From NCBI GenBank assembly GCA_964589975.1, contig CAZPVH010000005.1, forward strand, positions 3,612 to 67,611: DNA of 64,000 bases, read 5' to 3'. Shown here in pieces: positions 5,129 to 17,089 of the stretch. The position numbers and the translations under genes were made by a program. The DNA comes from an uncultured Candidatus Saccharibacteria bacterium. Lineage in GTDB: Bacteria; Patescibacteriota; Minisyncoccia; Phycocordibacterales; CSBR16-119. Position 1 is the stretch's first letter; each line of letters starts with the position of its first letter. The notes under the pieces are model-generated. The model ran no database searches, was not told where the DNA came from, and saw only the letters and a list, made by a program, of their open reading frames with translations.

Positions 5129-5377
5129 TCAAACAGTGTTAGCCTCTCGACCAACTTCCTGCTTCGTCTTGTCCGTCATCCTCTTAACGTCTTCATGAAG
5201 TCTTTCTACTTGGTCCTTCATGATCTCGCAGGCGAGCAGGTGGATTTGCTTGCACTCCGGATTGTCGAGGTCCTCGGTGACTTCGGCAAGCGATTTTTTC
5301 ACTTTATCGAAGGCTTCCCGTATCCGCTTTTCCAGGATGGCCTCAACGAACTTAAGGGCGGCTTCTTTCTTTTCCAT
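5129..5377 (-). CDS. Small hypothetical protein, 82 aa (start placed at MEKKEAALKF after the conserved CA-rich leader)
   Basis: ORF preceded by E1 copy A plus the shared CA-rich leader. Charged, helical-looking sequence. Confidence 0.35.
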   Translation of the reverse strand: MEKKEAALKFVEAILEKRIREAFDKVKKSLAEVTEDLDNPECKQIHLLACEIMKDQVERLHEDVKRMTDKTKQEVGREANTV

Positions 5378-5415
5378 GATGGGTCTGGTTTGTTGGTTTT
5401 TGTTTAAAGAACGTT

Positions 5416-5481
5416 CCACTCTTTGAAAACTCGAATCACTTCAAGTTCTCAAAAGTGGAGGCCAGCTGAGCAGGCCTCTTA
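5416..5481 (-). promoter_or_regulatory. E1 module copy A: terminator hairpin + approximately 46-bp imperfect palindrome + CA-rich leader
   Basis: CCACTCTTTGAAAACTCGAATCACTTCAAGTTCTCAAAAGTGGAGG followed by the hairpin GAGGCCAGCTGAGCAGGCCTC. Near-identical to copy B at 6861-6923. Confidence 0.55.
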
Positions 5482-5484
5482 CTT

Positions 5485-6279
5485 CTAGCCAGTGATCTCA
5501 TTGACCATGGCCTTGTGCGTCTCGACGATAAAGGGGTTGTCCTTGTCGTAGAGACCAACCGTGCTCGGCAAGATTGCTCGTGCAATCGTAATGAGCTCTT
5601 TGCGAGACAGATTCTCTGCATCAATAGCAATCAGGGCGAGACGCTCCTTCAAGCTTTTCGATGAAATCCATGCGGCCATCAAGCTTTCAAGCGCAGTCGC
5701 AACATGTTCGGGCATACCACTTGTTACCGGACCCTTCACCGCTACACTCTCAGAAATCTGAAAGTTTACAATGAAGCCGGGGGTGGTAGCTCGTCCACTC
5801 AACTGTTTGTGCTGTACCGCATAACCTCGTGATTCCACCAGAGCATAGAGCTTTGCTTCTTCAGCCTTGTTGTGAACATTCAGCTGGATTCGCAAGTGTC
5901 CCTTTTTGTCGAGACTTGGAAAATATTTCTTGACCCGTGGCTTGCACAAGGTGAGAAAATCATCCAAGTCTGGATTCAGAAAGGAATATGGTACAGCCCA
6001 GATCCGAGAGACCTTCCCGTCTTCGTGAATGTCGAACCTGACGCGAAGAGACCGGAATAATTCTTCCGACGTCGTTTTCTGTAGATCGAAGACCAAACGA
6101 AAACCTTCTTTGATTTGGGTTTGCTCAATGATCTTCGGCTCTACCAAGACTCCCTCTTTCTCAAGGAAACGTCTTTTAAGCTCCGATGCCAAGTTGATCA
6201 AAAGACTCCGGCCAGCGTGACCATGATCGTAAAGACCAAGGCAACCGGCTTTCGGTACAAGTTTTTTATACTGACGCAT
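5485..6279 (-). CDS. Hypothetical protein, 264 aa, driven by E2 copy b
   Basis: Long clean ORF. The start lies about 67 nt downstream of the E2 repeat on the minus strand. No family recognised. Confidence 0.5.
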   Translation of the reverse strand: MRQYKKLVPKAGCLGLYDHGHAGRSLLINLASELKRRFLEKEGVLVEPKIIEQTQIKEGFRLVFDLQKTTSEELFRSLRVRFDIHEDGKVSRIWAVPYSFLNPDLDDFLTLCKPRVKKYFPSLDKKGHLRIQLNVHNKAEEAKLYALVESRGYAVQHKQLSGRATTPGFIVNFQISESVAVKGPVTSGMPEHVATALESLMAAWISSKSLKERLALIAIDAENLSRKELITIARAILPSTVGLYDKDNPFIVETHKAMVNEITG

Positions 6280-6346
6280 GGTTTCTGCTTTTATGTAAAA
6301 GTGCTGACCTACAGACTACCACTTTTGTGGTAATTTGTCAATGTTA

Positions 6347-6408
6347 CCCTAAAGATTCGCGAACTGAATTCGTGAACCTTATAGAGAGGGGAAAGCTTTG
6401 CTTTCCCC
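6347..6408 (-). promoter_or_regulatory. E2 module copy b: hairpin + conserved 42-bp element with two near-palindromic TTCGYGAAC 9-mers
   Basis: CCCTAAAGATTCGCGAACTGAATTCGTGAACCTTATAGAGAG plus the hairpin GGGGAAAGCTTTGCTTTCCCC. TTGACA-17-TAGTCT lies just downstream on the minus strand. Confidence 0.55.
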
Positions 6409-6544
6409 TAGCGAGAGCGTTCGCTGGTGTTTGCCAGCACACAGTCATATTGAGGTTGGATTTCTCCAATACCCCGCTCTCTAAGTGTGCCCAGAAATGA
6501 GCCGATCTCGGCTTTGTGCTCCGGATGGGTCGCCGGCTGCGTCC

Positions 6545-6814
6545 TTACGCGCCTTCGTCGACGCTTACTCGCTCGACTCGGCCATACTTCTCGAGGATAC
6601 GAGACATTTCTGCCACGAATTCCTCAAAAGAAGTGAAGTGATCCTCGACCCACGGATTGCATCCGGCAGTCTTCTGGCATCCCGCCACAAAGGTGTTGAC
6701 CCGAGGCCGATAACCAGCCATCGCAGAAATTTCACACAGCCTATCTACGACTTGGAAATTCTCGTAGGTTTGGACAGCCAGACGAAGCTTCGTGATCTCA
6801 GAAATCATGATCAT
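6545..6814 (-). CDS. Small hypothetical protein, 89 aa (MIMISEITKL...); start placed after the E1-B leader
   Basis: Protein-like tail of the over-long ORF-track entry 6545..7261. The ATG sits directly after the conserved leader CTTTAAAACAAAAC...ACCCAC. Confidence 0.4.
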   Translation of the reverse strand: MIMISEITKLRLAVQTYENFQVVDRLCEISAMAGYRPRVNTFVAGCQKTAGCNPWVEDHFTSFEEFVAEMSRILEKYGRVERVSVDEGA

Positions 6815-6860
6815 GTGGGTTTTAATCTGACCGTTTTGTTTTAAAGAGCTCTGAGTGTTT

Positions 6861-6923
6861 CCACTCTTTGAAAACTCGAATTGCTTCAAGTTCTCAAAAG
6901 TGGAGGCCCGCCGAGCGAGCCTC
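6861..6923 (-). promoter_or_regulatory. E1 module copy B
   Basis: Differs from copy A by 2 nt in the core. The downstream leader on the minus strand, CTTTAAAACAAAACGG..AAAACCCAC-ATG, is conserved. Confidence 0.55.
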
Positions 6924-6938
6924 TCCTTCTTCGTGCAC

Positions 6939-7124
6939 CTAATCACTCTCGTTGCGATCGTTGATCGCATCCTGCATGTCGACCAAGCTGTGCAGCTTGT
7001 CGTCACGGTTGGTCTCGCAGGATCGCGACGAGGCAACCAGCCACTCGTTACGGGACGAACGCTCGTCCGCGCAGGCGAACTGCTCGTCAAAGAAGCTCCC
7101 GCAACAGACTTGTCGGTATACCAT
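6939..7124 (-). CDS. Small Cys-rich hypothetical protein, 61 aa
   Basis: ORF-track entry. The start lies about 40 nt downstream of E2 copy c on the minus strand. Contains CC and C-x-x-x-C. Confidence 0.3.
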   Translation of the reverse strand: MVYRQVCCGSFFDEQFACADERSSRNEWLVASSRSCETNRDDKLHSLVDMQDAINDRNESD

Positions 7125-7164
7125 GGTGGTGGGGGTGTTAGGTGGGTTATGTAAAGGTACAATT

Positions 7165-7235
7165 CCCTAAAGATCCGCGAACTGAATTCGTGAACCTTAT
7201 AGAGAGAAGAATATAGTCGTGAGAAAATATTCTTC
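7165..7235 (-). promoter_or_regulatory. E2 module copy c
   Basis: CCCTAAAGATCCGCGAACTGAATTCGTGAACCTTATAGAGAG (1 mismatch versus copy b) plus the hairpin GAAGAATATAGTCGTGAGAAAATATTCTTC. Confidence 0.55.
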
Positions 7236-7389
7236 TGTCTACATATTTGGCAATATTCCACTAAAGCAAAACAAATTTCTTTGCGTTGCTTAGAATGCGG
7301 TCGAACTTTAATATGGGGGTCGACCTAAATTTCAGCCCCTGAGCCCGTAAAAATTTCTTAAACCGGTACTCTTTTGTTTTTTCCCGCCT

Positions 7390-7683
7390 CTACAGGATCG
7401 GCAGATCCAAGGCTTCTCGGAAGAGCGCCTTGATCTCCTCGTCGGACATCTCCGACTTCGGCTTCGAAAGTCCGACCCAGAGAGTACGTCCGCCTCGCGG
7501 GAAGCGGTCATGCAGGTGGCCGTAGTCAACCTCGAGCTTCTTCACCTTAACCACGCTTCGCACATGATAGATGCGAGCTTGGCACGTCGAGCAGTGTCCC
7601 TGCTCGGCGACCTCGAAGTAGAGGCAGCCTTCATGTTCCAAGATCTCACGGCGAGTCTGCCATCCGGCAAGTGCAACCATCAT
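7390..7683 (-). CDS. Small hypothetical protein, about 97 aa (start at MMVALAGW after a CA-rich leader)
   Basis: The conserved leader TTAAAACAAAAAAACCAAAACCCCCCACACCC runs immediately into ATGATG. The upstream residues of the ORF-track entry are leader translation. Confidence 0.4.
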   Translation of the reverse strand: MMVALAGWQTRREILEHEGCLYFEVAEQGHCSTCQARIYHVRSVVKVKKLEVDYGHLHDRFPRGGRTLWVGLSKPKSEMSDEEIKALFREALDLPIL

Positions 7684-8049
7684 GGGTGTGGGGGGTTTTG
7701 GTTTTTTTGTTTTAAGGAACATTTCTGTTTCGCTCTTTTGAGCTCATCAGCGCGAACATACATTCGCGGACAGACAGGAGGAGACAGTGACGTCTCCTCC
7801 CCAGCGTAGAGAGTGATCATCTCTCTATCGCTGTACCCATTTTTTTCTTGTACATGACGGTACAATTGTCGCTTACGAGATCCGTGTCTCGCTGGGGTGC
7901 GCAACAAGAGCTTTTTCCTTCACGGGTTTTTGGTTGTGATTGCAACCATCTATCCGTCTTTGGGCTGGCGCTCAAGCCCTCGCAGTTTCTTCTAAAGAAC
8001 TTTCCCTTCTTCGTAGGCACTTCACTTCAAACTCAAGCCGATATCGCAC

Positions 8050-8388
8050 TTACTGAACGACACAATGGAGAAAAAGCGTGTCATTCATCCACCTGTGTAC
8101 AGTATCTAGCTCATCAATCAGCCTACTGGGGCCATCCCCGCAATCGGCATAATGGAAATCGGCTGAGCTGAAACGATTGATGTCTGACCCTACTACCTGA
8201 CACGTTTGAAGATAGAGCTGATAGTGCTCCCTCGTAAACGGGAATCCTACCAGATGCTTATTTCGCGTCTGGTCTACAAGACAAGACAACTTGGCAAACA
8301 ATCTTGCGATTGTTGGCGCATTGAAGCCGTTGATCATTGTGTCGGCGTATATTGTCATATCACCGACCTTTAAAGTGACTGCCTCCAT
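8050..8388 (-). CDS. Hypothetical protein, 112 aa, driven by E2 copy a
   Basis: Clean ORF. E2 repeat 36-75 nt upstream on the minus strand. Confidence 0.45.
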   Translation of the reverse strand: MEAVTLKVGDMTIYADTMINGFNAPTIARLFAKLSCLVDQTRNKHLVGFPFTREHYQLYLQTCQVVGSDINRFSSADFHYADCGDGPSRLIDELDTVHRWMNDTLFLHCVVQ

Positions 8389-8423
8389 TTTTGCTTTTTA
8401 ATGTACAAGTAATCGGGCGCAGA

Positions 8424-8491
8424 CCCTAAAGATTAACGAACAGAATTCGTAAACCTTATAAGGGGGAGGAGATGTTACAGCATCTCCTCCC
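8424..8491 (-). promoter_or_regulatory. E2 module copy a (more diverged)
   Basis: CCCTAAAGATTAACGAACAGAATTCGTAAACCTTATAAGGGGG plus the hairpin GGAGGAGATGTTACAGCATCTCCTCC. Abuts the 15-nt motif AAGTAATCGGGCGCAG. Confidence 0.5.
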
Positions 8492-8693
8492 TGCAGACTT
8501 CATCGACCACCCGCCTTCAGGGTGGGTCTGCTCGATCCAACTTTATTCCCCCAACATTACTTTTCGCCTGACTTGTCCGGCGACAAAAAGCAGTCGGGGC
8601 CCAGATAATCTAGCTTTGCTCTTAGGCAGCAAAGTGTCGACTGTCCTTCTTGCGGATTGGAATCCCGCTTGTGCATCGTTTTGGAAAGAACTT

Positions 8694-8757
8694 CCACATT
8701 TGAAAATTCGAATGTCTTCAAATACTCAAATGTAGGGAGAAGGCTTTGCCTTCTCCC
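8694..8757 (-). promoter_or_regulatory. E1 module copy C (diverged), immediately downstream of rsr
   Basis: CCACATTTGAAAATTCGAATGTCTTCAAATACTCAAATGTAGG plus the hairpin GGGAGAAGGCTTTGCCTTCTCCC. Followed on the minus strand by a 39-codon ORF (8557..8676). Confidence 0.45.
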
Positions 8758-8833
8758 ACAGATCTACCCCGGAGCCCCCGCCCCTCGATCTGTTTATTAC
8801 ACACCTATGGGCATAGGTGGCGAACGCCCGAGC

Positions 8834-10441
8834 TCACTTGCAGAAGTCTGCGATGAGGCTCGGCACGTTGGAGTCAAACCCAACCAGGTCGAGCATGCCA
8901 GCGTCACTAGGGTCTGCAATACTGAAGTCCGTGGACATCGTAGAGCAGACAACCAGCTTCGCGGGAATGCCCATCTCCTGTCGGTACCGCTTGAGCGCCT
9001 GAGACGGGTGGATTTCTCCAGCCCACGTCTCGTTATCCGTCCAGATCTGAAAAACGTCGACCGGAGTCTTCGCCCTCAGAGCATGGAGGATCGGCAGCGA
9101 GCAGTCGGTACCACCGAAATTGAGACCGTTCACCGCATGCATGTTGTCATCGAGCCTCTTGCGAGGTGAGACGTTCATGTCCTGCAGGCCGGTTCCACTT
9201 CTCCATCCGCGGTCAGCGGAAGTAAAAGCTTTCAGGTGATAGTTGCTTTCGGTCTTCATGACCGCCATGATCATAGCCATTGAGGCCTGCATAGCATTCA
9301 TGAATGGCATCCCAGCAACAGGGCTGTCCCACATCGAGCCGGACACATCCAGTCCGACGAAGATCCTCTTCCCGGTCGCTTCCAGATTCCCGAAGGAACC
9401 GTAGAAAGCGGCGTCAAGAATATCGATCACTCGCTGGACCGGCTTCCAGGTCAATGAGCCGCGCGCGCTCTTCCCGCTTGCGTACGTCACCAGTGCGGCG
9501 AGTACGTTCACAGGGTGGATCCTGGCCTTTTTCAAAGCGACAGGATCCGCGAGCTTCTGCTCGACGACTTTGAGCGCTCCGCTCATCGGCACAATGAGGC
9601 CGTTAGCCGTCATGCGCGCCAAGTTACGAAGCACCGCGGTCATCGGCATACCGGGCAAGAGGGCTTCCCATACCTTCGGGTCGCCGAGGAGCTCGGTTGG
9701 AACGAGCTCCCAGGTTACGCCTTGGTAGTCACCGATGATCTTCACCGCTTCCGCTGCCGTGGTGGCCGCTTGAAGCTTGGTGAAGGCCTCGATGATTTTC
9801 GGGACGCCATCCCCCATCTTTTCCTGAGCCACCCAACGGAACAAGTCCTGGTGCGCTTCGGAAGACGAGTGACTCTTGCGGAGCAGGTCGCGAAGCGACC
9901 AGCCCGAGCGTTGACGATATTTGACAGCTTGGTATGCCAGCTTCTCAGCCGACATGCTCGTCAAATATCCTGCCCAGCCGTTACGGTACTGACGGCTCCA
10001 CGTTCTGCCGAGCTGTTTCGCATTTTCAGCGAAAGCATAGGCGAACGAAAGAGTCCGGAGGACCGCAGGCATGGCCATAAGCGCATACTTCCTGGTTGCC
10101 TCATCGGCAAACTTCGGAGATGCAGCCATGGCGAGGACGAACAGAGCAGGGTCTTGCTTTGCAGCGCGACCCTCCGTCGAAAGTTCGACGACCGTGTCAA
10201 CGACACGCTTTCCGTTCATCTTCAAGCAACGCTGCACGGCTTCGGCATTATCAGTCGTGAGCTCGCGCCCGCCGACGTAGTAGCTGCCGCCGTCGCTACC
10301 AAGGATAATGAACCGCTCAAGGCGCTTCCAATCATCTACCGGGTAAGCGAAACCCCCGGCATTGTTCATCACCATGTTCGATCCTGGAATCGGAGCGTCT
10401 TGTGACGTCCTTTCCGTAGAAAAGTGCTGGGTGTATCTCAT
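8834..10441 (-). CDS. rsr: Ro60-like RNA-binding protein Rsr (TROVE domain with C-terminal vWA/MIDAS domain)
   Basis: N-terminal NNAGGFAYPVDDWKRLERFIILGSDGGSYY matches the conserved TROVE N-terminus of Ro60/Rsr. C-terminal LDVSGSM (a DxSxS MIDAS motif) with downstream T and D residues. GC-rich relative to neighbours. Its 5' leader is the same CA-rich leader used by the adjacent small genes. Confidence 0.8.
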   Translation of the reverse strand: MRYTQHFSTERTSQDAPIPGSNMVMNNAGGFAYPVDDWKRLERFIILGSDGGSYYVGGRELTTDNAEAVQRCLKMNGKRVVDTVVELSTEGRAAKQDPALFVLAMAASPKFADEATRKYALMAMPAVLRTLSFAYAFAENAKQLGRTWSRQYRNGWAGYLTSMSAEKLAYQAVKYRQRSGWSLRDLLRKSHSSSEAHQDLFRWVAQEKMGDGVPKIIEAFTKLQAATTAAEAVKIIGDYQGVTWELVPTELLGDPKVWEALLPGMPMTAVLRNLARMTANGLIVPMSGALKVVEQKLADPVALKKARIHPVNVLAALVTYASGKSARGSLTWKPVQRVIDILDAAFYGSFGNLEATGKRIFVGLDVSGSMWDSPVAGMPFMNAMQASMAMIMAVMKTESNYHLKAFTSADRGWRSGTGLQDMNVSPRKRLDDNMHAVNGLNFGGTDCSLPILHALRAKTPVDVFQIWTDNETWAGEIHPSQALKRYRQEMGIPAKLVVCSTMSTDFSIADPSDAGMLDLVGFDSNVPSLIADFCK

Positions 10442-11021
10442 GACGAGGGTTTTTGGTTAGGTTTGTTTTTTGAAAGACCGGAGAGACCAGAAGCGGATAA
10501 GGTGTGAAGAAAGGGTTAAAGATGGCGGCCAAAGCTCGCCATCCAGGTCAAATATTTGGGTAACCTTCCTTCTTCGACCCGCTTCTGGTCTCAATTATCA
10601 ATGCTCGAAACATGCTTTCGAGCGGATTTTGAGAGAAATATTAGTGATTTCTTCCAAAATCCGCCCAAGAGCCAACTGTATACTAATCAATCGAAGCCAT
10701 ATAAATATATTTTGCTTGATCCAGATCAGTTTTGTTGCTGTTGTTTTGAGACTGTTCTAAATGTTTCTGGGTAAAGCTTAGCAGATTCGAAATGATTTGT
10801 CAAGTATTTTTGTCGAGAATTCTATTTTTTGTCAGAATAGCCTTATTTTACAACATATTTTTGTTTATGTAAAAAAACAAAAATTGACTATTTTTATTTA
10901 TTCTTGAAAATATTTTTGCAAATAAAATAATTATTTTTCTAATACGTCAAAGATTGTTTTTGAATGAAAACTTATAAAATCTTGCAGTGAAATACTTTTT
11001 TGGAACTAATTTAAATATAGT

Positions 11022-11440
11022 TGACAAAAAATGACATGTCTGATATACTCCCCCCAGATGTGATTCATAGCTCAAGCGTTCATGGGAAGCGGGTTATCTG
11101 CATAGACAAAGAGAAATCTACGCAGAAATGATGGGTATCCAGACAATTACGATGACTGGAACCCAGATGTGAACAGTCACAGAACCGTCCCACACCTAAC
11201 CTCACGGCCATGAACGACTAGGGAGCACCCGTCCTGCATCCGCCAGCCCACCCTTTGTGGGCGGCGGATGCGGAAGGGTCACCTCGAGCAATCAATTCGC
11301 AGTAAGCACATGCACGACTAGAACAGAAGACATGGAAAACCTCATTGGAAATGGTCAGGATCACTACCCCTGACCACGCACCACAGTCATGAATGACTGA
11401 AGAGAACAAGAGCCCGCAACGGATGTTGCGGGCTCTCTTT
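11022..11440 (+). ncRNA. Candidate structured non-coding RNA (about 390 nt) with its own sigma70-like promoter and intrinsic terminator; class unknown
   Basis: TTGACA (11022-11027), 17 bp, TATACT. No ORF over 25 codons on the plus strand. Strong internal hairpins (11236-11275, 11364-11387). Ends in a GC hairpin plus T-run at 11404-11440. The motif CATGMAYGACTRG occurs three times. Confidence 0.5.
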
Positions 11441-11445
11441 TTTAT

Positions 11446-12192
11446 TTATTTGGATCCGCCAAAGGCGAGCTTGAACAAACTTCGGAGCGTTTCAGCCACA
11501 TCAGCGCTTTTTATAAAAATCGTACCAGCATGCTTGCCGAATATGTGAATCCTAACGCTTTCATTGTATATTCCAATTTCCGCTTTTATAGGATATTTTT
11601 CAGGATCTATCCTCTTTCTGTCCATTGTTATATCGGATGTATACTCGCCTTTGGAATATGAGTAGATTGAAACTATTTTTACGTTTTTTTCAATTCTTTT
11701 TTTCTTTACAGGCTCAAGCTCTTTTGGAGTAAAACTCTTCTCCACTTCATCGCGCGGATAAATCACATACATGAGACCGCCTTCTCCTCCGTCAAACATA
11801 TTTCTTGCCGATCGCAGAATCTCTTCCTGACCAGTGTAGTATTCGACGATGGGCCTCTCGCCAAGTCCTCTTGCCACTGCTTTGAATTTCGGGACCATAT
11901 CTTTTACGATCTTCGACTGTTCTGAAAGTTTTATCTTCTGCTCCTCTATATAGCTCTCTATTCTCTCCGGCGGGAGAGCGTGGATGTAAGTTTTTTCATT
12001 TTTCGTTATCTCCTCTACCAAACCTTTTTCAGTAAGAGAATCTATGACTGGATAAATAGTTGTTCTGTTAATTTTAGTTTTTTTGGAAATTTCTGCCACA
12101 TTTGGCTCATCCACCGTCAGCAAGAACATATAGACCTTTGCTTCTTTATCTGACAAACCAACCTCGACGAGAAATTTTTCTAGGTTTTCCAT
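11446..12192 (-). CDS. TrmB-family HTH transcriptional regulator, paralog 2 of 4
   Basis: N-terminus SDKEAKVYMFLLTVDEPNVAEISKKTKINRTTIYPVIDSLTEKGLV. Confidence 0.7.
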   Translation of the reverse strand: MENLEKFLVEVGLSDKEAKVYMFLLTVDEPNVAEISKKTKINRTTIYPVIDSLTEKGLVEEITKNEKTYIHALPPERIESYIEEQKIKLSEQSKIVKDMVPKFKAVARGLGERPIVEYYTGQEEILRSARNMFDGGEGGLMYVIYPRDEVEKSFTPKELEPVKKKRIEKNVKIVSIYSYSKGEYTSDITMDRKRIDPEKYPIKAEIGIYNESVRIHIFGKHAGTIFIKSADVAETLRSLFKLAFGGSK

Positions 12193-12240
12193 GGAGACAT
12201 TTTACTTCAAAAAGAAGATTCGAGGAAGTATAATTAATCC

Positions 12241-12642
12241 ATGCAAAAGGAGACTACCCATAAATCAGAAAAAGAAGCTTTCAACATTGTGAAGCGCGCA
12301 AAAAGCTTCGGACATGCAACACGCGGGATCGCTGTTTTCATAAAGACGACGCATAATGCCTGGATTCACCTATTAATCGCGTGCGCCACTATCATCCTTG
12401 GAATACTATTCGACATTACTACGACTGAATGGCTTTTCCTTGTTTTTGCCATCGGCTTCGTTATGGTCGCCGAATGTTTCAATACTGCTTTTGAGTTCGA
12501 CATAGACCTGACTTCCCCGGAATATCATCCGTATGCGAAATACACGAAAGACGTCGCGGCCGGCGCTGTCCTAATCTCCGCCATCACGGCAAGCGCTATT
12601 GGTCTCATCATATTCCTCCCCAAAATTTTCTTTGCCTCATAA
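12241..12642 (+). CDS. dgkA: Diacylglycerol kinase / undecaprenol kinase family membrane protein
   Basis: 133 aa with three predicted TM helices. The motifs ...VAECFNTAFE... and an N-terminal amphipathic helix are typical of the prokaryotic DAGK fold. Confidence 0.65.
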   Translation: MQKETTHKSEKEAFNIVKRAKSFGHATRGIAVFIKTTHNAWIHLLIACATIILGILFDITTTEWLFLVFAIGFVMVAECFNTAFEFDIDLTSPEYHPYAKYTKDVAAGAVLISAITASAIGLIIFLPKIFFAS

Positions 12643-12939: not shown

Positions 12940-14019
12940 ATGACTACCGGCAAACCTCCTCCGACCAGAATTCAGATCTTCATAGATGGACGAAACTTTT
13001 ATCATGTAAGCCGACACTACCGCTTCGATCACCCTGTTGGAAGTTTCATCAATCTCCGCGGACTTCAGGGATTCATACGCAAAAAGGTCGCAGAATTTCT
13101 AGGCATGGAACTTGAAGCTGCAACGATCACCAGGTGCCACCTGTTCATGGGAACAGACAGAGATAAAAAGGATGCCTTGCACGAGATCCTTCGAAACCGT
13201 GGCGTTCGACTTCACTGGCACGCTCTCGTAAAAAGAGAAGACGGACAAAAGAAAGAACTTGGTGTCGATGTTGGCTTGGCGACATCCGCACTGTCCGCTG
13301 CCTATGAAGACAAGATGGATGTGATGGTACTGCTCGGCGCAGACGGCGACTTCTACCCCGCAATCGCCCAAGTCCAGCATCTAAAGAAAAAAGTGGTGCT
13401 CGCATTCTGGGATATTCTGCCTTCTCCGAACAACAAGCTCTCGAAGCGCATAACCACAAGCAATTCATTGATACGGATGGCGGATTTCATCATCAATATG
13501 CGCGTGGAGATGAACGCGATGCTGGAAGGGCAAACCGAGGAAGCAAAATTTATCTTCGGGACCAAAGGCGAAAACTTCACCCCGACGGAAAATCAAGTCT
13601 ATCAAGACGTCTCTCCGGTCACTCCGCCAGAGACAACCCAACCACGTCCGCAAAAACCTCCGATCACTCCAGCTCCAACAGTGCACAAGGCTCCCGAGCA
13701 GCCACGTGCGCCCAAGGTAGCTGACAAGAAGCCCGTTCCAACACTGAACCCAAAACAACACGAAAGACGGAAACGAAGAGAGTCTCCGAAGTTCGATACC
13801 ACCAAACAGCGCGGCAGAATCACTCAGAAGAATAACAATGTCGGCTACATTCTCCCGCTTGAAGGAAAAGAACTGATCCCTTTCCTCAAGTATGATCTGA
13901 AACTTACCAACACCGACTTTGACGCTCTCTCTGCCGGATCTTTGGTGGAGTACACAGTTGCCAAGGGGGCCCGAGCCGGCAAGGATCTGGCCACCAACAT
14001 CTGCATCGTACATGAATAA
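12940..14019 (+). CDS. NYN-domain (LabA/PIN-like) ribonuclease fused to a C-terminal cold-shock-like domain, paralog 1
   Basis: IFIDGRNFYH ... GVDVGLATSA ... DVMVLLGADGDFYPAI is characteristic of NYN/LabA. The C-terminus GRITQKNNNVGYILP...FLKYD...GSLVEYTVAKGARAGKDLATNI resembles a CSD/S1 fold. A Pro-rich linker sits between the domains. Confidence 0.65.
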   Translation: MTTGKPPPTRIQIFIDGRNFYHVSRHYRFDHPVGSFINLRGLQGFIRKKVAEFLGMELEAATITRCHLFMGTDRDKKDALHEILRNRGVRLHWHALVKREDGQKKELGVDVGLATSALSAAYEDKMDVMVLLGADGDFYPAIAQVQHLKKKVVLAFWDILPSPNNKLSKRITTSNSLIRMADFIINMRVEMNAMLEGQTEEAKFIFGTKGENFTPTENQVYQDVSPVTPPETTQPRPQKPPITPAPTVHKAPEQPRAPKVADKKPVPTLNPKQHERRKRRESPKFDTTKQRGRITQKNNNVGYILPLEGKELIPFLKYDLKLTNTDFDALSAGSLVEYTVAKGARAGKDLATNICIVHE

Positions 14020-14103
14020 GAAGCGCCGCCCACCCGGGCGGCGCTTTTTGACAAACAACATTTTATAAGTACTATATGTCACAGACAAAACACGTAAAGC
14101 ACC

Positions 14104-14973
14104 ATGAAAACAGACAGCCCTTTGCGCGCAGGGGTGTTTATTGACGGTACATATTTTGGCATCGTAAATAAGCACTACCAAGACCTTCCGGGATTACAAA
14201 AACCAATAGATCATGCCGGGCTACTCTCGTTCCTCCAACGACAAACAGCAGAATTACTCAGTGTCACAAGAGATGGCCTGACTATCACCCGGCGTCACAT
14301 GTATCTTGGGCTCCCTTTAGGAGCAAGCATCTCCAACATGCGATGGCAACAAGAAGCAATGCTCAAAGTCGACATTGATCTCCAGCACTTCCCCATAAAG
14401 AATAACGGCGGAGGAATAGCAAAAGAACAAGGCGTCGATGTGGCATTAGCCTGGGACGCCGGCTACGAGTCTTCGAAACTCGACGTCTACATACTCATCA
14501 CCGGTGATGGGGATTTCATTCCCCTAGTCGATAAGCTGCAGAGTATTGGGAAAAAGGTAATCCTGGCATACTGGCATGTCGGCTCCGAACCGGGCAAAAC
14601 CTCTCGTACCAATACCGACCTCATCAGATCCGCAACACACTCTGTCAACATGAGACAAAAGATAGAGGTTGGCCTAGCGAGCGGAGACAAGCATATCTGT
14701 AAAATCTTCGGCCCCAATCATCAAATACCCGAAGCAAAACCGAAAAAGAATGGCGCACTCGAAATATTCGAAGGAGTCATTCTCTCTCAAACGACAACGG
14801 GGGGCCGCATCAGAAAGATTCCGATCGGAAACAAGAAGAGAACATTGGTATTTTTCAAGGAAGAGGTGGAGGGCGCGCCGTTCAAACACTTTGAACCAGA
14901 TCGCAAGGTTCAATTTTCCATTGTTTACGAAAACAACATGAAACGAGCTATCCACGTAAAGCTCATCGCATAG
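14104..14973 (+). CDS. NYN-domain ribonuclease fused to a C-terminal cold-shock-like domain, paralog 2
   Basis: VFIDGTYFGIV ... GVDVALAWDAGYE ... DVYILITGDGDFIPLV. C-terminus EGVILSQTTTGGRIRKIP...FFKEE...QFSIVYENNMKRAIHV. Same architecture as the upstream gene. Confidence 0.65.
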   Translation: MKTDSPLRAGVFIDGTYFGIVNKHYQDLPGLQKPIDHAGLLSFLQRQTAELLSVTRDGLTITRRHMYLGLPLGASISNMRWQQEAMLKVDIDLQHFPIKNNGGGIAKEQGVDVALAWDAGYESSKLDVYILITGDGDFIPLVDKLQSIGKKVILAYWHVGSEPGKTSRTNTDLIRSATHSVNMRQKIEVGLASGDKHICKIFGPNHQIPEAKPKKNGALEIFEGVILSQTTTGGRIRKIPIGNKKRTLVFFKEEVEGAPFKHFEPDRKVQFSIVYENNMKRAIHVKLIA

Positions 14974-15011
14974 CACAACCGAAACGCCAGCTTCTTAGGA
15001 AGCTGGCGTTT

Positions 15012-16526
15012 TTATTTCACTTTATATTCGTCCCGGATTTTTTTTATTTCTTCTCCTTCGGCATCGTCCTTTGCGCTCTTCCCCGCCTCGCCGAGCTTCC
15101 GGAGGTGCTCATCTGTCATTTCCAGTAATTGCTTGGCGCGAGTCTGTAGGTATTCTTCGGTATTTTTATTCGGATCGTCTAAGACTTCTTCTAGGAGTGC
15201 ATGAAGCGTCCAGCTGAAGCGCGGCCCCGGTTTCTCCCCCATCTCTTTCAGCTTATTGCCATCAATCTTGAGCATCCCGACGTTGATCGGATCACGCATC
15301 ACTTCTTCAATCATGGACTCAAATTTCCTGAGGCGATACGGCTCCTCCTTCGGGCGGCCCATCCCAATCCTGTCGCAGATCCTGAGGTCTATGAGGTCCC
15401 AAACGTTCTCGGCGCCAACTTTCGCGACCAATCTCCGCACGGCCGAAAGCGTGATCTGATCCGTGTCAGAGAAAAACATGTGATACCGAACGAGTCGATA
15501 AATTTTTTCCGTGAAGTCGCTCCCCATTTTAAGCCTCTCGCAAATTTTCCGCGCGAGCTTTCCGCCCACCACGTCGTGGCCATAAAACGTGTAATCATTT
15601 TTTTCTTTGGACCATTCTCTGGTATGAGGTTTCGCGATATCGTGCAGAAGTCCCGCAAGCCGGATATGGAGCGGCCAGTCTTTATCCGCCGCGTGTTGCA
15701 TAGTGCGGAGATTGTGTTCCCAGACATCATAAATGTGTTCCCCGTTTTGTTCGACACCAATGCCGATTTCGAGCTCGGGAATAATATATTTCAAGATTCC
15801 AAGTTTCTGCGCCATCGAAATACCGACAATTGGTTCCGGCGCCATGAGCATTTTGAGAAACTCATCGCGAATACGTTCGGCGGAAATATTTTTGAGGAGA
15901 TCAACATGCTTTGCCATAGCCATCATCGTTTCGGCCTCTATCACAAATCCGTGCTGCGTTGAAAATCTAACAGCGCGTAAAATTCGGAGCGCATCTTCCT
16001 GAAAACGCTCCTCAGCATTTCCGACTGCCTTGATCATCTTATCTTTGATTGCCTCCCTACCATCGTACAGGTCAACAAGCTCTCCGCTCGCTGGATCATA
16101 GGCAATGGCGTTCATGGTGAAGTCGCGACGTTTTAGATCGTCGCTTAAAACTTTTGAAAATTTTACTTCGTCCGGATGTCTGTTGTCCGAATAAGCAGAC
16201 TCAAGCCGGTAAGGAGTAACCTCGATAACTTTTAAGGCTTCATCCTCTGTAATCTTATTCTCTACCCCAACTGTACCGAATTTGTTTTCATAAAAAGTAT
16301 CAGGAAAAATACTCTGGATTTCTTCCGGCGTCGCATTAGTGGTTACATCCCAATCTTTCGGGGTTTTGCCGGTTAAAAGATCACGAACACAACCGCCCAC
16401 AATGTAGGCCTCGAAACCGGCCTTTTGAAGACTGTCAGTTACAAGCCGAACTTCGGCTGGAATATTAAAATTTTCCTTTCCATTCATAGTATAGATTTTA
16501 GCAGATGAGACTTCCCTGTTGTGCAC
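15012..16526 (-). CDS. cca: CCA-adding tRNA nucleotidyltransferase with HD domain (true start may be the internal MNGKENFN at about 16487)
   Basis: YIVGGCVRDLLTGKTPKDWDVTT (Pol-beta-like nucleotidyltransferase head) followed by an HD phosphohydrolase region (HDIAKP). Bidirectional terminator at 14976-15011. Confidence 0.8.
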   Translation of the reverse strand: MHNREVSSAKIYTMNGKENFNIPAEVRLVTDSLQKAGFEAYIVGGCVRDLLTGKTPKDWDVTTNATPEEIQSIFPDTFYENKFGTVGVENKITEDEALKVIEVTPYRLESAYSDNRHPDEVKFSKVLSDDLKRRDFTMNAIAYDPASGELVDLYDGREAIKDKMIKAVGNAEERFQEDALRILRAVRFSTQHGFVIEAETMMAMAKHVDLLKNISAERIRDEFLKMLMAPEPIVGISMAQKLGILKYIIPELEIGIGVEQNGEHIYDVWEHNLRTMQHAADKDWPLHIRLAGLLHDIAKPHTREWSKEKNDYTFYGHDVVGGKLARKICERLKMGSDFTEKIYRLVRYHMFFSDTDQITLSAVRRLVAKVGAENVWDLIDLRICDRIGMGRPKEEPYRLRKFESMIEEVMRDPINVGMLKIDGNKLKEMGEKPGPRFSWTLHALLEEVLDDPNKNTEEYLQTRAKQLLEMTDEHLRKLGEAGKSAKDDAEGEEIKKIRDEYKVK

Positions 16527-16661
16527 CGCTAGGACTCTCGACTACCGTCGCGGGTACTTTTCCACCTCGCTACGCTCGTACGGAAAAGTCTTTCTCGTCC
16601 TGACGGAAGCAAAGCAGTTTGCTTCCTGCGGGTGCACAAAGTTTCGCTCCGCTCTACTTTG

Positions 16662-16733
16662 TGCACCCGCCAGGACTCGAACCTGGAATAACGCGTCCGA
16701 AGCGCGTCGTGATATCCATTTCACCACGGGTGC
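16662..16733 (-). tRNA. tRNA-Arg (anticodon TCG)
   Basis: Manual fold. Acceptor GCACCCG/CGGGTGC, anticodon stem ACGCG/CGCGT with loop CTTCGGA, T-arm CCAGG-TTCGAGTC-CTGG, discriminator A. CCA is not encoded. Confidence 0.8.
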
Positions 16734-16931
16734 AGTCAATTTTTAAAAGCCTAACACTTTTCTATGCGGGTAAGGAGAATCGTCCACAACTCTCGCTGCG
16801 CGAGGTCGCCGGCCCCGCCTCATTCGTCGCCCGCCTGCGGCAGGCCGACATCATTCCGGCTTTCGATTCTCCACGCAGGGCAAGCAGTTGCCCTGCCCTA
16901 CCCGACACATAAAAAGCGAATTTGCTTTTCT

Positions 16932-17002
16932 GTGCGGGTAGGGAGAATCGAACTCCCGTCTCGTCCTTGGCAAGGACGTGTTCTACCACTAAACCATACC
17001 CG
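16932..17002 (-). tRNA. tRNA-Gly (anticodon GCC)
   Basis: Manual fold. Acceptor GCGGGTA/TACCCGC, anticodon stem CGTCC/GGACG with loop TTGCCAA, T-arm GGGAG-TTCGATT-CTCCC. Confidence 0.8.
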
Positions 17003-17089
17003 CAAATTAACCCTGTTACAATATCAATTTTCTCCAATAAATACAAGAAAGCCCGCATTACGCGGACTTTCGGAAAAAAGCTCTGATGA

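Follow-up and report, generated by a model that had tools for sequence, protein, structure and literature searches.

What is made from a strongly promoted stretch of DNA that has no evident protein gene and lies beside the Ro protein gene rsr in an uncultured CPR (Paceibacteria-type) bacterium: a Ro-associated RNA, another known RNA, or something else? CPR bacteria account for a large share of bacterial diversity and have tiny genomes, and to our knowledge their regulatory RNA is almost unexplored; literature searches on CPR hammerheads, CPR RNase P and CPR structured RNAs returned nothing relevant. The stretch had been flagged in a first-pass annotation of 64,000 nucleotides of contiguous DNA (the window, to which all coordinates refer) as an orphan unit without ORF and a candidate structured ncRNA. 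Judged from its sequence and relatives, it is a real, strongly promoted RNA of about 390 bases, unrelated to the neighbouring Ro protein gene, and the group of small RNAs to which it belongs, marked by a Met-X-Asp-stop frame, is previously undescribed.

The transcription unit and its conserved neighbour

The near-consensus sigma70 promoter reported earlier (TTGACA-17-TATACT) is present. With its -35 hexamer at 11021-11026 and its -10 hexamer at 11044-11049 it scores 11/12 plus the TG, it is the top-scoring site within 10300-12300, and transcription would start at about 11055-11057. The strong intrinsic terminator was likewise recovered, with a stem of 12-13 bp (11409-11436), 8 of them G-C, and a U-tract; it is bidirectional, its minus-strand reading serving the convergent gene whose stop codon it abuts. 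As is expected of an independent sRNA gene, the unit has a promoter and an intrinsic terminator of its own, both kept in relatives, and it is structured and conserved, which bears out the earlier description of an independent promoter-to-terminator unit. The statement that no ORF exceeds about 20 codons was inexact, given that the transcribed strand holds GTG-initiated ORFs of 38 codons (11257-11373) and 23 codons, but neither the frame nor the sequence of these two is conserved among the homologues. Blastn of the unit against phage and plasmid collections gave no match.

Homologues detected with nhmmer (loci L007, L008, L172, L173, L176, L177, L174/175 and L009-011; E 3e-53 to 6e-4) come from seven other metagenomic lineages, each lying directly 3' of, and convergent to, a TrmB-like gene, and all full-length homologues share the promoter type. 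The TrmBL2-like gene is the sole neighbour conserved with the RNA; the AlphaFold model of its product (pLDDT 88) matches TrmBL2 over its full length (E = 4e-11). Searches of the neighbours with NCBIfam and PADLOC returned winged-helix and NYN matches only, and no gene for a modifying enzyme or exporter is conserved near the unit. At every locus the terminator faces the convergent 3' end of the TrmBL2-like gene, and not a downstream gene on the same strand. The TrmBL2-like protein would be the obvious candidate for a repressor of the near-consensus promoter.

Table 1. Features of the mini-ORF RNA and of its surroundings in the window
Feature	Position	Strand	Remarks
Y-RNA-like stem-loop	10478-10600	-	directly upstream of rsr, separate from the unit
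Sigma-70-type promoter	11021-11049	+	-35 TTGACA, 17-nt spacer, TG-extended -10 TATACT
Predicted mini-ORF RNA of the window subfamily, about 390 nt	11055-11444	+	bounded by promoter and terminator; nhmmer homologues
H0 5' strand UGUGAUU	11059-11065	+	pseudoknot helix with 11175-11181
H1 5' strand GCUC	11070-11073	+	pairs with GAGC 11286-11289
H2 5' strand GCGUUCAUGG, "anti-mini-ORF" strand	11076-11085	+	partner is mini-ORF 1
Conserved junction GRAAGN, then H3 5' strand GGGUUA	11086-11096	+	
Two variable hairpins (11098-11125, 11133-11164)	11098-11164	+	sequence and length lineage-specific
Conserved block AGUCAC-NGAA-CCGU	11175-11188	+	H0 3' strand, then CCGU
H3 3' strand UAACCU	11197-11202	+	
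Mini-ORF 1, AUG AAC GAC UAG (Met-Asn-Asp-stop)	11210-11221	+	mostly inside helix H2
Long hairpin E	11221-11284	+	inner stem GCAUCCGCC/GGCGGAUGC, the hairpin noted earlier
H1 3' strand GAGC	11286-11289	+	closes three-way junction H1/H2/E
Mini-ORF 2, AUG CAC GAC UAG (Met-His-Asp-stop)	11310-11321	+	A-rich, mostly unpaired linker
Conserved hairpin GGUCAGG...CCUGACC	11353-11375	+	6 pairs, 3 with compensatory changes
Mini-ORF 3, AUG AAU GAC UGA (Met-Asn-Asp-stop)	11389-11400	+	stop codon 8 nt before terminator stem
Intrinsic terminator	11409-11447	+	stem 11409-11436, then U-tract
TrmBL2-like winged-helix DNA-binding protein, 248 aa	11446-12192	-	Pfam TrmB; AlphaFold match

Relation to Ro, RNase P and other RNA classes

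The lead suggested by the surroundings, a Ro60-associated RNA (Y-RNA-like partner or substrate) or else a degenerate RNase P RNA, draws on the closeness of rsr, which indeed lies within 600 bp as stated (rsr start 10441, promoter 11021, a distance of 580 bp), and on the strings GGGAAGCGGG and ACAGAACC, which we take to recall CR-I and CR-V of RNase P. We give this explanation hardly any chance. Rfam 15 at the gathering score over the whole window contains no family match for the unit, and at E<=10 on 10350-11550 and 11050-11410 only terminator look-alikes appeared; the proposed check against the bacterial families, RNaseP_bact_a, RNaseP_bact_b and Y_RNA included, thus matched none, and for this reason the unit is not RNase P, tmRNA, 6S or Y RNA. 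A tmRNA was also rejected on the lack of a tRNA-like domain, ARAGORN giving only five tRNAs in the window.

Similarly to bacterial RNase P RNA, the unit is about 390 nt long and has a pseudoknotted core and two short strings resembling CR-I and CR-V; unlike it, the unit matches no covariance model, has its elements in the wrong order, and lacks the specificity domain and P15. A P4 equivalent is unsupported, the pairing not being maintained in the homologues: the candidate NGG/CCG has C, A or U for the N (in AAG-N-GGG) opposite an invariant G, and the other possible registers disagree between the window and L007. The ACAGAA block, which stands in the 5' third of the RNA, is variable (ACGAAA, ACAAAA). 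The first-pass annotation had itself argued against RNase P, rightly, but had misplaced the RNase P-like stretch GATGTGAACAGTCACAGAACCG, which is at 11166-11187 and not at 11176-11197.

An association with Ro was not supported. The homologues accompany the TrmBL2-like gene and none has rsr nearby, no TROVE gene being found in L009 and L176 (2.4-5 kb of flank), and nhmmer over all stored loci detected no homologue of the unit in the loci of the nearest Rsr homologues (L003-L006). The Ro60 of the window has no relative above 52% identity, the GC content of rsr is 0.53-0.61 against 0.20-0.45 in the intergenic flank towards the RNA, and a separate Y-like RNA abuts the gene (Table 1); rsr gives the appearance of a GC-rich insertion, accompanied by a Y-like RNA of its own. 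The bacterial Y RNAs YrlA/YrlB share with the unit a place near rsr, structure and a non-coding appearance, but the unit has no Rfam match, is about three times longer and is conserved without rsr.

Three-codon reading frames

The 64-kb window has exactly three copies of the motif CATGNNNGACTR, at 11209, 11309 and 11388, all within the unit, and shuffles hold a mean of 0.6 copies; the three copies had been noticed before, with the last two placed 2 nt away from their true positions. The motif, CAUG-NNN-GAC-URR, is a three-codon frame, AUG-NNN-GAC-stop (Met-X-Asp-stop). Across 8 lineages, 24/24 copies read AUG-NNN-GAC/GAG followed by UAA, UAG or UGA, and never by UGG. The first-pass annotation had named a conserved small ORF with coding-type variation as the finding that would count against a non-coding RNA, and such an ORF is present, in miniature form; the description of the unit as a pure ncRNA without ORF was incomplete, and the ncRNA call is only partly right. 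In principle, GAY plus URR could also be an RNA-level or protein-binding motif; no trans targets complementary to the motif were found in the window or in neighbouring ORF-poor regions.

No Shine-Dalgarno (SD) sequence precedes any mini-ORF of the window subfamily. A crude count found SD use at 1/43 long ORFs of the window lineage, and this near-absence would account for the missing SD at the window mini-ORFs. Most family members have roughly 8-11 nt between mini-ORF 3 and the terminator, one has 17 nt, and a terminator-proximal last mini-ORF is restricted to the window subfamily.

A conserved fold that masks the first frame

The unit has a minimum free energy of -149.3 kcal/mol (z = -7.5 against shuffles), and the hairpin GCATCCGCC...GGCGGATGC at 11237-11270 agrees with the strong hairpins claimed for it. 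The strand cannot be identified from folding energy, because the reverse strand folds equally well (z = -8.6). Because the variable hairpins misalign in plain MAFFT alignments, both of the whole RNA and of its thirds, RNAalifold found a single hairpin there; helix strands were therefore extracted by anchors and pairs counted on a pseudo-alignment. Counted on these hand-extracted segments of 7 sequences, representing about 4-5 independent lineages, the core fold has 90% of cells paired, against 26-39% with the partners slid, and seven pairs changed on both sides; the plus strand is supported because the count includes 11 G-U cells, which on the other strand would be A-C.

Helix H0 has 5-7 bp in 7/7 sequences, with double-sided changes at two pairs (C-G / U-A, U-G also occurring at one of them); H1 becomes CAUAC/GUAUG in L009 and L010, so that three pairs are changed on both sides. 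Helix H2 has 9-10 bp with 91% of cells paired, and its 5' strand is also able to form duplexes with mini-ORFs 2 and 3 (-8 to -16 kcal/mol). CCGU of the conserved block can pair with ACGG 11204-11207, a putative pairing that is 100% kept as CCGU/RCGG and nearly invariant; being almost invariant, both H2 and CCGU/ACGG prove little. A hairpin stands at the position of E in every lineage, with a different sequence each time. Two local hairpins were discarded: GUGA...UCAC (11169-11180) exists only in the window and L007, the pairing of GUCAC with the 5' end holding in all members, and one around mini-ORF 3 varies in register between lineages. The fold is thus conserved and pseudoknotted, with a long-range helix that masks mini-ORF 1 and with mini-ORFs 2 and 3 more accessible, the mean unpaired probability across the window family being 0.30 for the first and 0.53-0.54 for the other two.

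Such a fold invites the reading of a purely structural, untranslated RNA (protein-binding, sponge or ribozyme-like), whose CAUG-NNN-GACU-RR motifs would act at the RNA level as protein sites or in alternative pairings with the 5' strand UCGUNCAUGG, perhaps between different molecules. In its favour are the absence of SD at the motifs of the window subfamily, motif 1 forming the 3' strand of a conserved 9-10-bp helix, the pseudoknotted core with invariant junction nucleotides, the very stable fold, and the ability of the anti-strand to pair with all three copies at similar energy. Against these stand the regularities of the frames, above all in more distant relatives, and we consider this reading rather unlikely.

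Equivalent units across Paceibacteria

All loci were retrieved through the TrmB-like protein, so that linkage was measured in one direction only: among 173 TrmB-anchored Paceibacteria loci, 97 have an equivalent promoter-to-terminator unit, with a near-consensus convergent promoter 220-520 nt past the trmB stop. A hairpin followed by a U-tract, as in an intrinsic terminator, ends 65/89 distinct units. The window subfamily itself gave no nhmmer match and no conserved blocks in 160 more distant TrmB loci; the unit sequences are mostly singletons by blastn, and between clades there is no sequence conservation outside the mini-ORFs, which is difficult to reconcile with a purely structural RNA. The frame ATG-NNN-GAY-stop occurs 90 times in the 89 distinct units (2.89 per kb) and 18 times outside the units, where both strands of these loci were counted over 1.1 Mb (0.016 per kb), an enrichment of about 180-fold; shuffled units hold a mean of 1.0 occurrence. 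At least one M-X-D mini-ORF is present in 72/89 units, in one to three copies, and the 9-mers enriched in units include GAAAGGAGG and ATGGGCGAC.

Three sense codons are by far the preferred length (121 ORFs, against 16 of two and 48 of four codons), and the third codon of the three-codon ORFs is GAC in 73, GAT in 16, GAG in 2 and GAA in none. In the window family a stop codon always follows GAC, with all three stops in use; among the three-codon ORFs of the wider set GAT is tolerated while GAA and GAG are almost never seen, and extended variants (MGDK*, MGDT*, MGDD*, MGDSD*, MGDMGD*) stay in frame until a stop, all of which would be unexpected of untranslated RNA-level motifs. An SD-like motif, often a strong SD, precedes 90/130 mini-ORFs in the units of relatives; strong, correctly spaced SDs in most relatives, whose genomes otherwise rarely use SD, likewise argue against the structural reading. 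As a separate observation, trmB looks leaderless, which defeated a cross-tabulation of SD use at trmB and at the mini-ORFs. For an unrelated clade that has SDs, the RNAalifold structure places UCCUCC opposite SD1 and AGUCG opposite the Asp codon plus U, and these masking pairs surround a covarying hairpin (44 pairs, 16 compensatory).

Retention of one genomic position while the anchor protein diverged to about 30% identity indicates selection for something specific. By these comparisons the group is widespread, fast-evolving and convergent to a TrmBL2-like regulator gene, with AUG-NNN-GAY-stop as its only constant element. The mini-ORF pattern, synonymous in both stop and Asp codons, is as evident as the existence, strand, ends and conservation of the RNA, and suggests that the mini-ORFs are translated.

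How the RNA may act

On balance, we favour the explanation that the unit is a discrete sRNA of about 390 nt, within an undescribed group of 220-520 nt, that probably works as a ribosome-engaging riboregulator or minigene RNA. The RNA would engage ribosomes at its mini-ORFs in a manner resembling leader peptides or minigenes, and a ribosome bound or stalled on a mini-ORF, its A or P site occupied by the Asp codon, would change the fold by competing with the masking helices. One possible output is the efficiency of the terminator 8 nt past mini-ORF 3, and with it antisense read-through into the convergent TrmBL2-like gene; another is an effect on translation in trans, in which ribosomes, or tRNA-Asp in the form of peptidyl-tRNA, would be sequestered. 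The TrmBL2-like protein, in turn, may repress the near-consensus promoter. Terminators controlled by uORFs that sense ribosome stalling are established, e.g. rli53/lmo0919 (PMC11550727). A classical attenuator would have no obvious target here, because the loci do not share a protein gene downstream on the same strand, and no antiterminator was identified in the unit.

Minigenes of 3-8 codons sequester tRNA as peptidyl-tRNA, the shorter ones more strongly (PMC2490762). A related proposal is a minigene-type growth brake or toxin, in which release of fMet-X-Asp-tRNA(Asp) would deplete tRNA-Asp, highly expressed three-codon ORFs would load ribosomes and slow translation, and the TrmBL2-like protein would repress the promoter. 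The near-consensus promoter, the strong SDs of relatives, the preference for three codons with Asp as conserved last sense codon, the greatest potency of the shortest minigenes in tRNA sequestration (PMC2490762) and the invariable adjacency of a DNA-binding protein gene all speak for it. However, extended variants such as MGDK*, MGDT* and MGDF* end in other codons, so that Asp is conserved at position 3 and not as the last codon; moreover, the structure partly masks the mini-ORFs and repression by the TrmBL2-like protein is a supposition, and we regard such a brake or toxin as improbable.

More improbable still is a simple polycistronic mRNA whose function lies in the tripeptides that it encodes (fMet-X-Asp, or X-Asp after processing). 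The coding-like conservation, with both Asp codons, all three stops and SDs, is what such an mRNA would display, but position 2 accepts nearly any residue (at least 20 different codons), genes for modifying enzymes or exporters are not conserved in the vicinity, and the extensive conserved structure would be needless.

The ribosome-engaging RNA that we favour has partial counterparts among known systems. Leader-peptide and uORF attenuators (the erm and cat leaders, rli53-lmo0919, the vmlR leader) similarly place a very short ORF within alternative base-pairings, with a specific codon conserved; in relatives of the unit a complementary strand further downstream masks SD and ORF, and the window unit has an intrinsic terminator close behind. 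In contrast to them, the unit has no downstream gene on the same strand, converges on a regulator gene instead of preceding a regulated one, and offers two to three copies of a three-codon Met-X-Asp ORF, with no arrest peptide, in a stand-alone RNA. Phage lambda bar and synthetic minigenes of 3-8 codons also have 2-3 sense codons behind a ribosome-binding site, a conserved last sense codon and an otherwise non-coding transcript; ORFs of 2-8 codons so placed are found in the relatives, whereas the window frames have no SD, and the unit differs from minigenes in being chromosomal, conserved across a class-level clade, heavily structured and multi-copy per RNA. Dual-function sRNAs (SgrS/SgrT, RNAIII/hld, SR1/SR1P) and tmRNA are likewise structured, independently transcribed and offer a short frame to ribosomes, but their ORFs encode peptides of 10 to about 45 residues or a tag where those of the unit have three codons, and the unit has neither a tRNA-like domain (ARAGORN) nor a known base-pairing target.

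Implications

The analysis corrects an easy mis-annotation as a "Ro-associated ncRNA". More tentatively, the group may constitute a "minigene RNA" of Paceibacteria, with ribosome-read Met-X-Asp frames, gated by structure and paired with a TrmBL2-like protein, that would be a new sensor of the translation state or a brake on it, acting e.g. through levels of tRNA-Asp or peptidyl-tRNA or through antisense read-through controlled by ribosome occupancy; we know of no described bacterial RNA class that works in this way. If the frames are read by ribosomes, few known conserved reading frames would be as short, and they would be a natural chromosomal counterpart of laboratory "minigenes", and early-elongation sensing, peptidyl-tRNA drop-off and growth control in obligate symbionts would become testable with simple constructs.

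Transcript boundaries and rejected identities

The sigma70 promoter and strong intrinsic terminator reported in the first-pass annotation are both present. The promoter (TTGACA, 17 nt, TATACT with a TG extension) scores 11/12 in a scan for match to consensus and is the best sigma-70-type promoter of the surrounding 2 kb; the terminator hairpin, which precedes a U-tract, is bidirectional and would also terminate the convergent gene on the minus strand. The ~390-nt stretch between them has a G+C content of 0.55, against 0.20-0.30 upstream, contains the strong hairpin quoted in that annotation, and folds with an MFE of -149.3 kcal/mol (z = -7.5 vs shuffles); its reverse strand folds equally well. 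The description of the region as free of ORFs longer than about 20 codons has to be amended by a 38-codon GTG ORF on the transcribed strand (11257-11373), which is conserved in no homologue.

At the gathering score, Rfam 15 returned nothing for the whole window except five tRNAs, and the recommended search yielded no family match for the unit even at E ≤ 10, where only terminator look-alikes appeared around it; ARAGORN found no tmRNA in the window. The doubt already voiced about RNase P RNA was borne out: besides the missing Rfam match, the likeness goes no further than two short strings, homologues do not keep the would-be P4 helix, and their 'ACAGAA' block is variable.

Features of the unit and its surroundings (window coordinates unless a locus is named)
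Feature	Position	Strand	Remarks
ORF-poor stretch, multi-kb	about 5300-8800	-	L009 4170-5969; L176 6400-10753
Type III hammerhead ribozyme	7722-7776	-	intact CUGAUGA...GAAAC core, GUC cleavage site
Ro60/Rsr	8834-10441	-	TROVE and vWA_Ro60 domains
Y-RNA-like element	10478-10600	-	directly upstream of rsr, co-oriented
Divergent promoter	about 10775-10803	-	TTGACA-17-TAAGCT; alignable to L009, L176
Unit	11021-11447	+
Mini-ORF 1	11210-11221	+
Mini-ORF 2	11310-11321	+
Mini-ORF 3	11389-11400	+
Intrinsic terminator	11409-11447	+	12-13-bp G+C-rich hairpin, then U-tract
TrmB-family winged-helix protein	11446-12192	-	domain match

Homologues and genomic linkage

With the unit as query, nhmmer detected clear RNA homologues beside every close TrmB-like relative (88-57% protein identity), in loci from independent samples (L007, L008, L172, L009-L011, L173, L176/L177 and L174/L175), and nothing in L003-L006, the loci with the nearest Rsr relatives. 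In all cases the homologue is located directly past the trmB stop codon on the strand opposite to this gene. Five of these loci are interrupted by a contig end; all full-length homologues have a promoter of the form TG-extended TTGACA-16/17-TA(T/G)ACT, and the terminator hairpin is present in all homologues. No TROVE gene was found in the 2.4-5 kb past the RNA in L009 and L176. These observations indicate that the RNA belongs with the TrmBL2-like gene and not with rsr, contrary to the Ro association proposed earlier, within a sampling in which every locus was retrieved through its TrmB-like protein and which units elsewhere in the same genomes escape.

The repeated motif as a three-codon mini-ORF

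The 64-kb window has three copies of the motif CATGNNNGACTR (shuffle mean 0.6), at 11209, 11309 and 11388, all within the unit; the three copies had been recognised from the start, with two of their coordinates wrong by 2 nt, and another coordinate of the same annotation was off by 10 nt. Read as codons, these copies are AUG AAC GAC UAG, AUG CAC GAC UAG and AUG AAU GAC UGA, and all 24 copies from eight lineages read AUG-NNN-GAC (GAG once) followed by UAA, UAG or UGA, never by UGG. Judged by this codon pattern, the thrice-repeated motif is a mini-ORF.

The pattern recurs in positional equivalents of the unit in distant loci, where 97 of 173 loci carry a near-consensus promoter at 220-520 nt past the trmB stop, on the strand opposite to this gene, and a hairpin with U-tract ends 65 of the 89 distinct units. 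The sequences of these units are mostly blastn singletons, unrelated between clades apart from the mini-ORF features; enriched k-mers are GAAAGGAGG, ATGGGCGAC and ATGAGCGACTA, and typical examples read GGAAGGAGGTGGCT ATG CCC GAC TAA (L024) and AAAGGAGGGTTCT ATG AAC GAC TAG (L133). The 31.1 kb of units contain 90 occurrences of ATG-NNN-GAY-stop, vs 18 in the other 1.1 Mb of the loci (counted on both strands, antisense of the units included); shuffling the units leaves 1.0 on average and at most 5. ATG-NNN-GAY is directly followed by a stop codon in 90 of 144 instances. Of the 89 units, 72 have one or more M-X-D frames of 3-7 codons, and an SD-like motif, called from short motifs, precedes 90 of 130 such frames. 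ORFs of three sense codons (n = 121) stand beside those of two (n = 16) and four (n = 48), with GAC (73), GAT (16), GAG (2) or GAA (0) as third codon of the three-codon ORFs; longer versions remain in frame, often with extra Asp (MGDD*, MGDSD*, MGDGD*, MGDMGD*, MGDK*, MGDT*). Taken together, stop-codon and Asp-codon synonymy, SD spacing and frame-preserving extensions are the signature of an element that ribosomes read. A motif acting purely at the RNA level seems improbable, and the remaining rivals are rated lower still.

The mini-ORFs of the window have no SD, which fits an SD-poor lineage: by a crude count, an SD precedes 1 of 43 long ORFs in the window vs 20 of 160 in loci with SD-led mini-ORFs. 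The Shine-Dalgarno 5-mer is rare before long ORFs in general (1/43 in the window and 22/211 in the fetched Paceibacteria loci, again a crude count), and against this background the strong SDs of many relatives' mini-ORFs stand out.

A proposed common fold and the exposure of the mini-ORFs

A common architecture for the window RNA and its nhmmer homologues was derived by anchoring on invariant blocks. The 5'-terminal UGUGAUU would pair with AGUCACA in a pseudoknot helix (H0); H1 (GCUC/GAGC, with CAUAC/GUAUG instead in L009 and L010) would close a three-way junction; H2 would be formed by UCGUNCAUGG/CCAUGNACGA; and H3 (GGGUUA/UAACCY) would enclose two variable hairpins and an invariant GUCAC-NGAA-CCGU block, with a possible pairing of CCGU with ACGG. 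On the 3' side of this core come, in order, the long hairpin E, an A-rich linker, the conserved hairpin at 11353-11375 and the terminator. Pairs were counted on a pseudo-alignment of the helix strands of seven sequences, where 90% of cells are paired, vs 26-39% with partners slid, both sides change at seven pairs and the observed covariation score is reached by no shuffle. The count also favours the plus strand, since eleven of its cells are G-U and would read A-C if the other strand were transcribed. Support for the common fold is moderate, given the few independent lineages, the segments chosen by hand and the near invariance of H2 and CCGU/ACGG.

Within this subfamily, mini-ORF 1 supplies the 3' strand of helix H2 (mean unpaired probability 0.30), mini-ORF 2 lies in the open A-rich linker (0.53, and 0.47-0.86 just upstream), and mini-ORF 3 (0.54) ends in the window 8 nt ahead of the terminator stem, a gap that, read off the sequences, is roughly 8-11 nt in other members and 17 nt in one. 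A single 'anti-mini-ORF' strand is predicted to be capable of a duplex with each of the three copies (-8 to -16 kcal/mol), copy 2 being preferred in L176 and L009. In the RNAalifold structure of an unrelated SD-bearing clade (L036, L038, L047, L108, L118 and L027), SD1 (GGAGGA) is paired to UCCUCC, and CGACU, which spans the Asp codon plus a U, is paired to AGUCG; these masking pairs surround a strongly covarying hairpin (44 pairs, 16 compensatory); mini-ORF 2 is again in an open, here purine-rich, stretch. The two folds suggest that masking of the first mini-ORF by a long-range helix is a shared principle achieved with different sequences. This clade also has an invariant loop, GGACCUCAUUGGC, in the hairpin between mini-ORF 1 and the masking strand (alignment A6, columns 129-141), and at its 5' end a conserved hairpin followed by CUUAAAA.

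Neighbouring genes and elements

The AlphaFold model of the TrmB-like protein (pLDDT 88) has a full-length match to TrmBL2 (E = 4e-11), an archaeal chromatin protein/repressor, and its named homologues are from Nomura-, Zambryski-, Lloyd- and Taylorbacteria, which identifies the window as DNA of a Paceibacteria-type CPR bacterium. Many loci carry a -10-like box (TAAAAT/TATAAT/TATACT) 6-8 nt before the ATG of this gene (window 12193-12215 and equivalent sites), with no SD ahead of the ATG at these positions, and the gene looks leaderless, or almost so. Further downstream lie genes encoding a diacylglycerol kinase, a pair of NYN-domain proteins and an enzyme of the CCA-adding/poly(A) polymerase type; an RNA-metabolism cluster at 12940-17003, on the opposite side of the unit from rsr, contains two paralogous NYN-domain nucleases, the latter enzyme with an HD domain, tRNA-Arg and tRNA-Gly.

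Among 5.8 billion proteins searched, the closest relative of Rsr is 52% identical, and the G+C content of rsr is 0.53-0.61 against 0.20-0.45 in the intergenic flank towards the RNA; by this distance and contrast, rsr and the Y-like RNA (8834-10630) look like a horizontally acquired insertion. The segment is located between the conserved divergent promoter and the hammerhead region. The Y-RNA-like element has a perfect 14-bp terminal stem (GAGACCAGAAGCGG/CCGCUUCUGGUCUC), an internal loop and two inner hairpins (MFE -57.9 kcal/mol, z = -6.4), and gave no match to the Rfam Y_RNA and YrlA models at E ≤ 10.

The hammerhead scores 44.2 bits against Rfam Hammerhead_3 (gathering score 48.5; E = 1.4e-7), and its end coincides with the ATG of an unannotatable 110-aa ORF (7390-7722). 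The pattern CTGATGAG-N6-16-CGAAAC is found in 28 of 177 TrmB-anchored loci, with up to 4 copies per locus, nearly always 1-4 kb past trmB and oriented like that gene. The ORF-poor stretch that holds the hammerheads lies beyond the RNA's promoter and is entered from the divergent promoter; it has a G+C content of 0.45-0.55, short nucleotide-level conserved patches in all frames and internal repeats, and gave no match in Rfam. It has the appearance of one or several large structured RNAs, so far unannotated, whose processing is by self-cleavage, and in the window may be partly coding, since ORFs without Pfam match (5485-6279, 6545-7261 and 8050-8388) overlap it.

A possible mechanism and its analogues

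The ends of the transcript, its conservation, elements of its fold and the signature of the mini-ORFs are demonstrated at the level of sequence, and a reading in which the unit engages ribosomes is, taken as a whole, slightly favoured. In this reading the mini-ORFs would be bound by ribosomes, whose presence there, or arrest at the Asp codon, would compete with the masking helices. The output could be modulation of the adjacent bidirectional terminator, leading to antisense read-through into the TrmBL2-like gene, or else a trans effect on ribosomes or tRNA-Asp; the TrmBL2-like gene is the sole conserved cis neighbour of the RNA.

The uORF attenuator of rli53/lmo0919 senses ribosome stalling (PMC11550727), and minigenes sequester tRNA as peptidyl-tRNA, the shorter the more strongly (PMC2490762). 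The unit is similar in logic to leader-peptide attenuators and to minigenes; it lacks the downstream regulated gene that defines the former, and unlike bar minigenes it is chromosomal, structured and multi-copy, with conservation across a class-level clade. No description of such a unit was found in Rfam 15 or in the literature searched. The unit, known here from its sequence, is probably a mini-ORF-bearing regulatory RNA, with a fair chance that it represents a new class.
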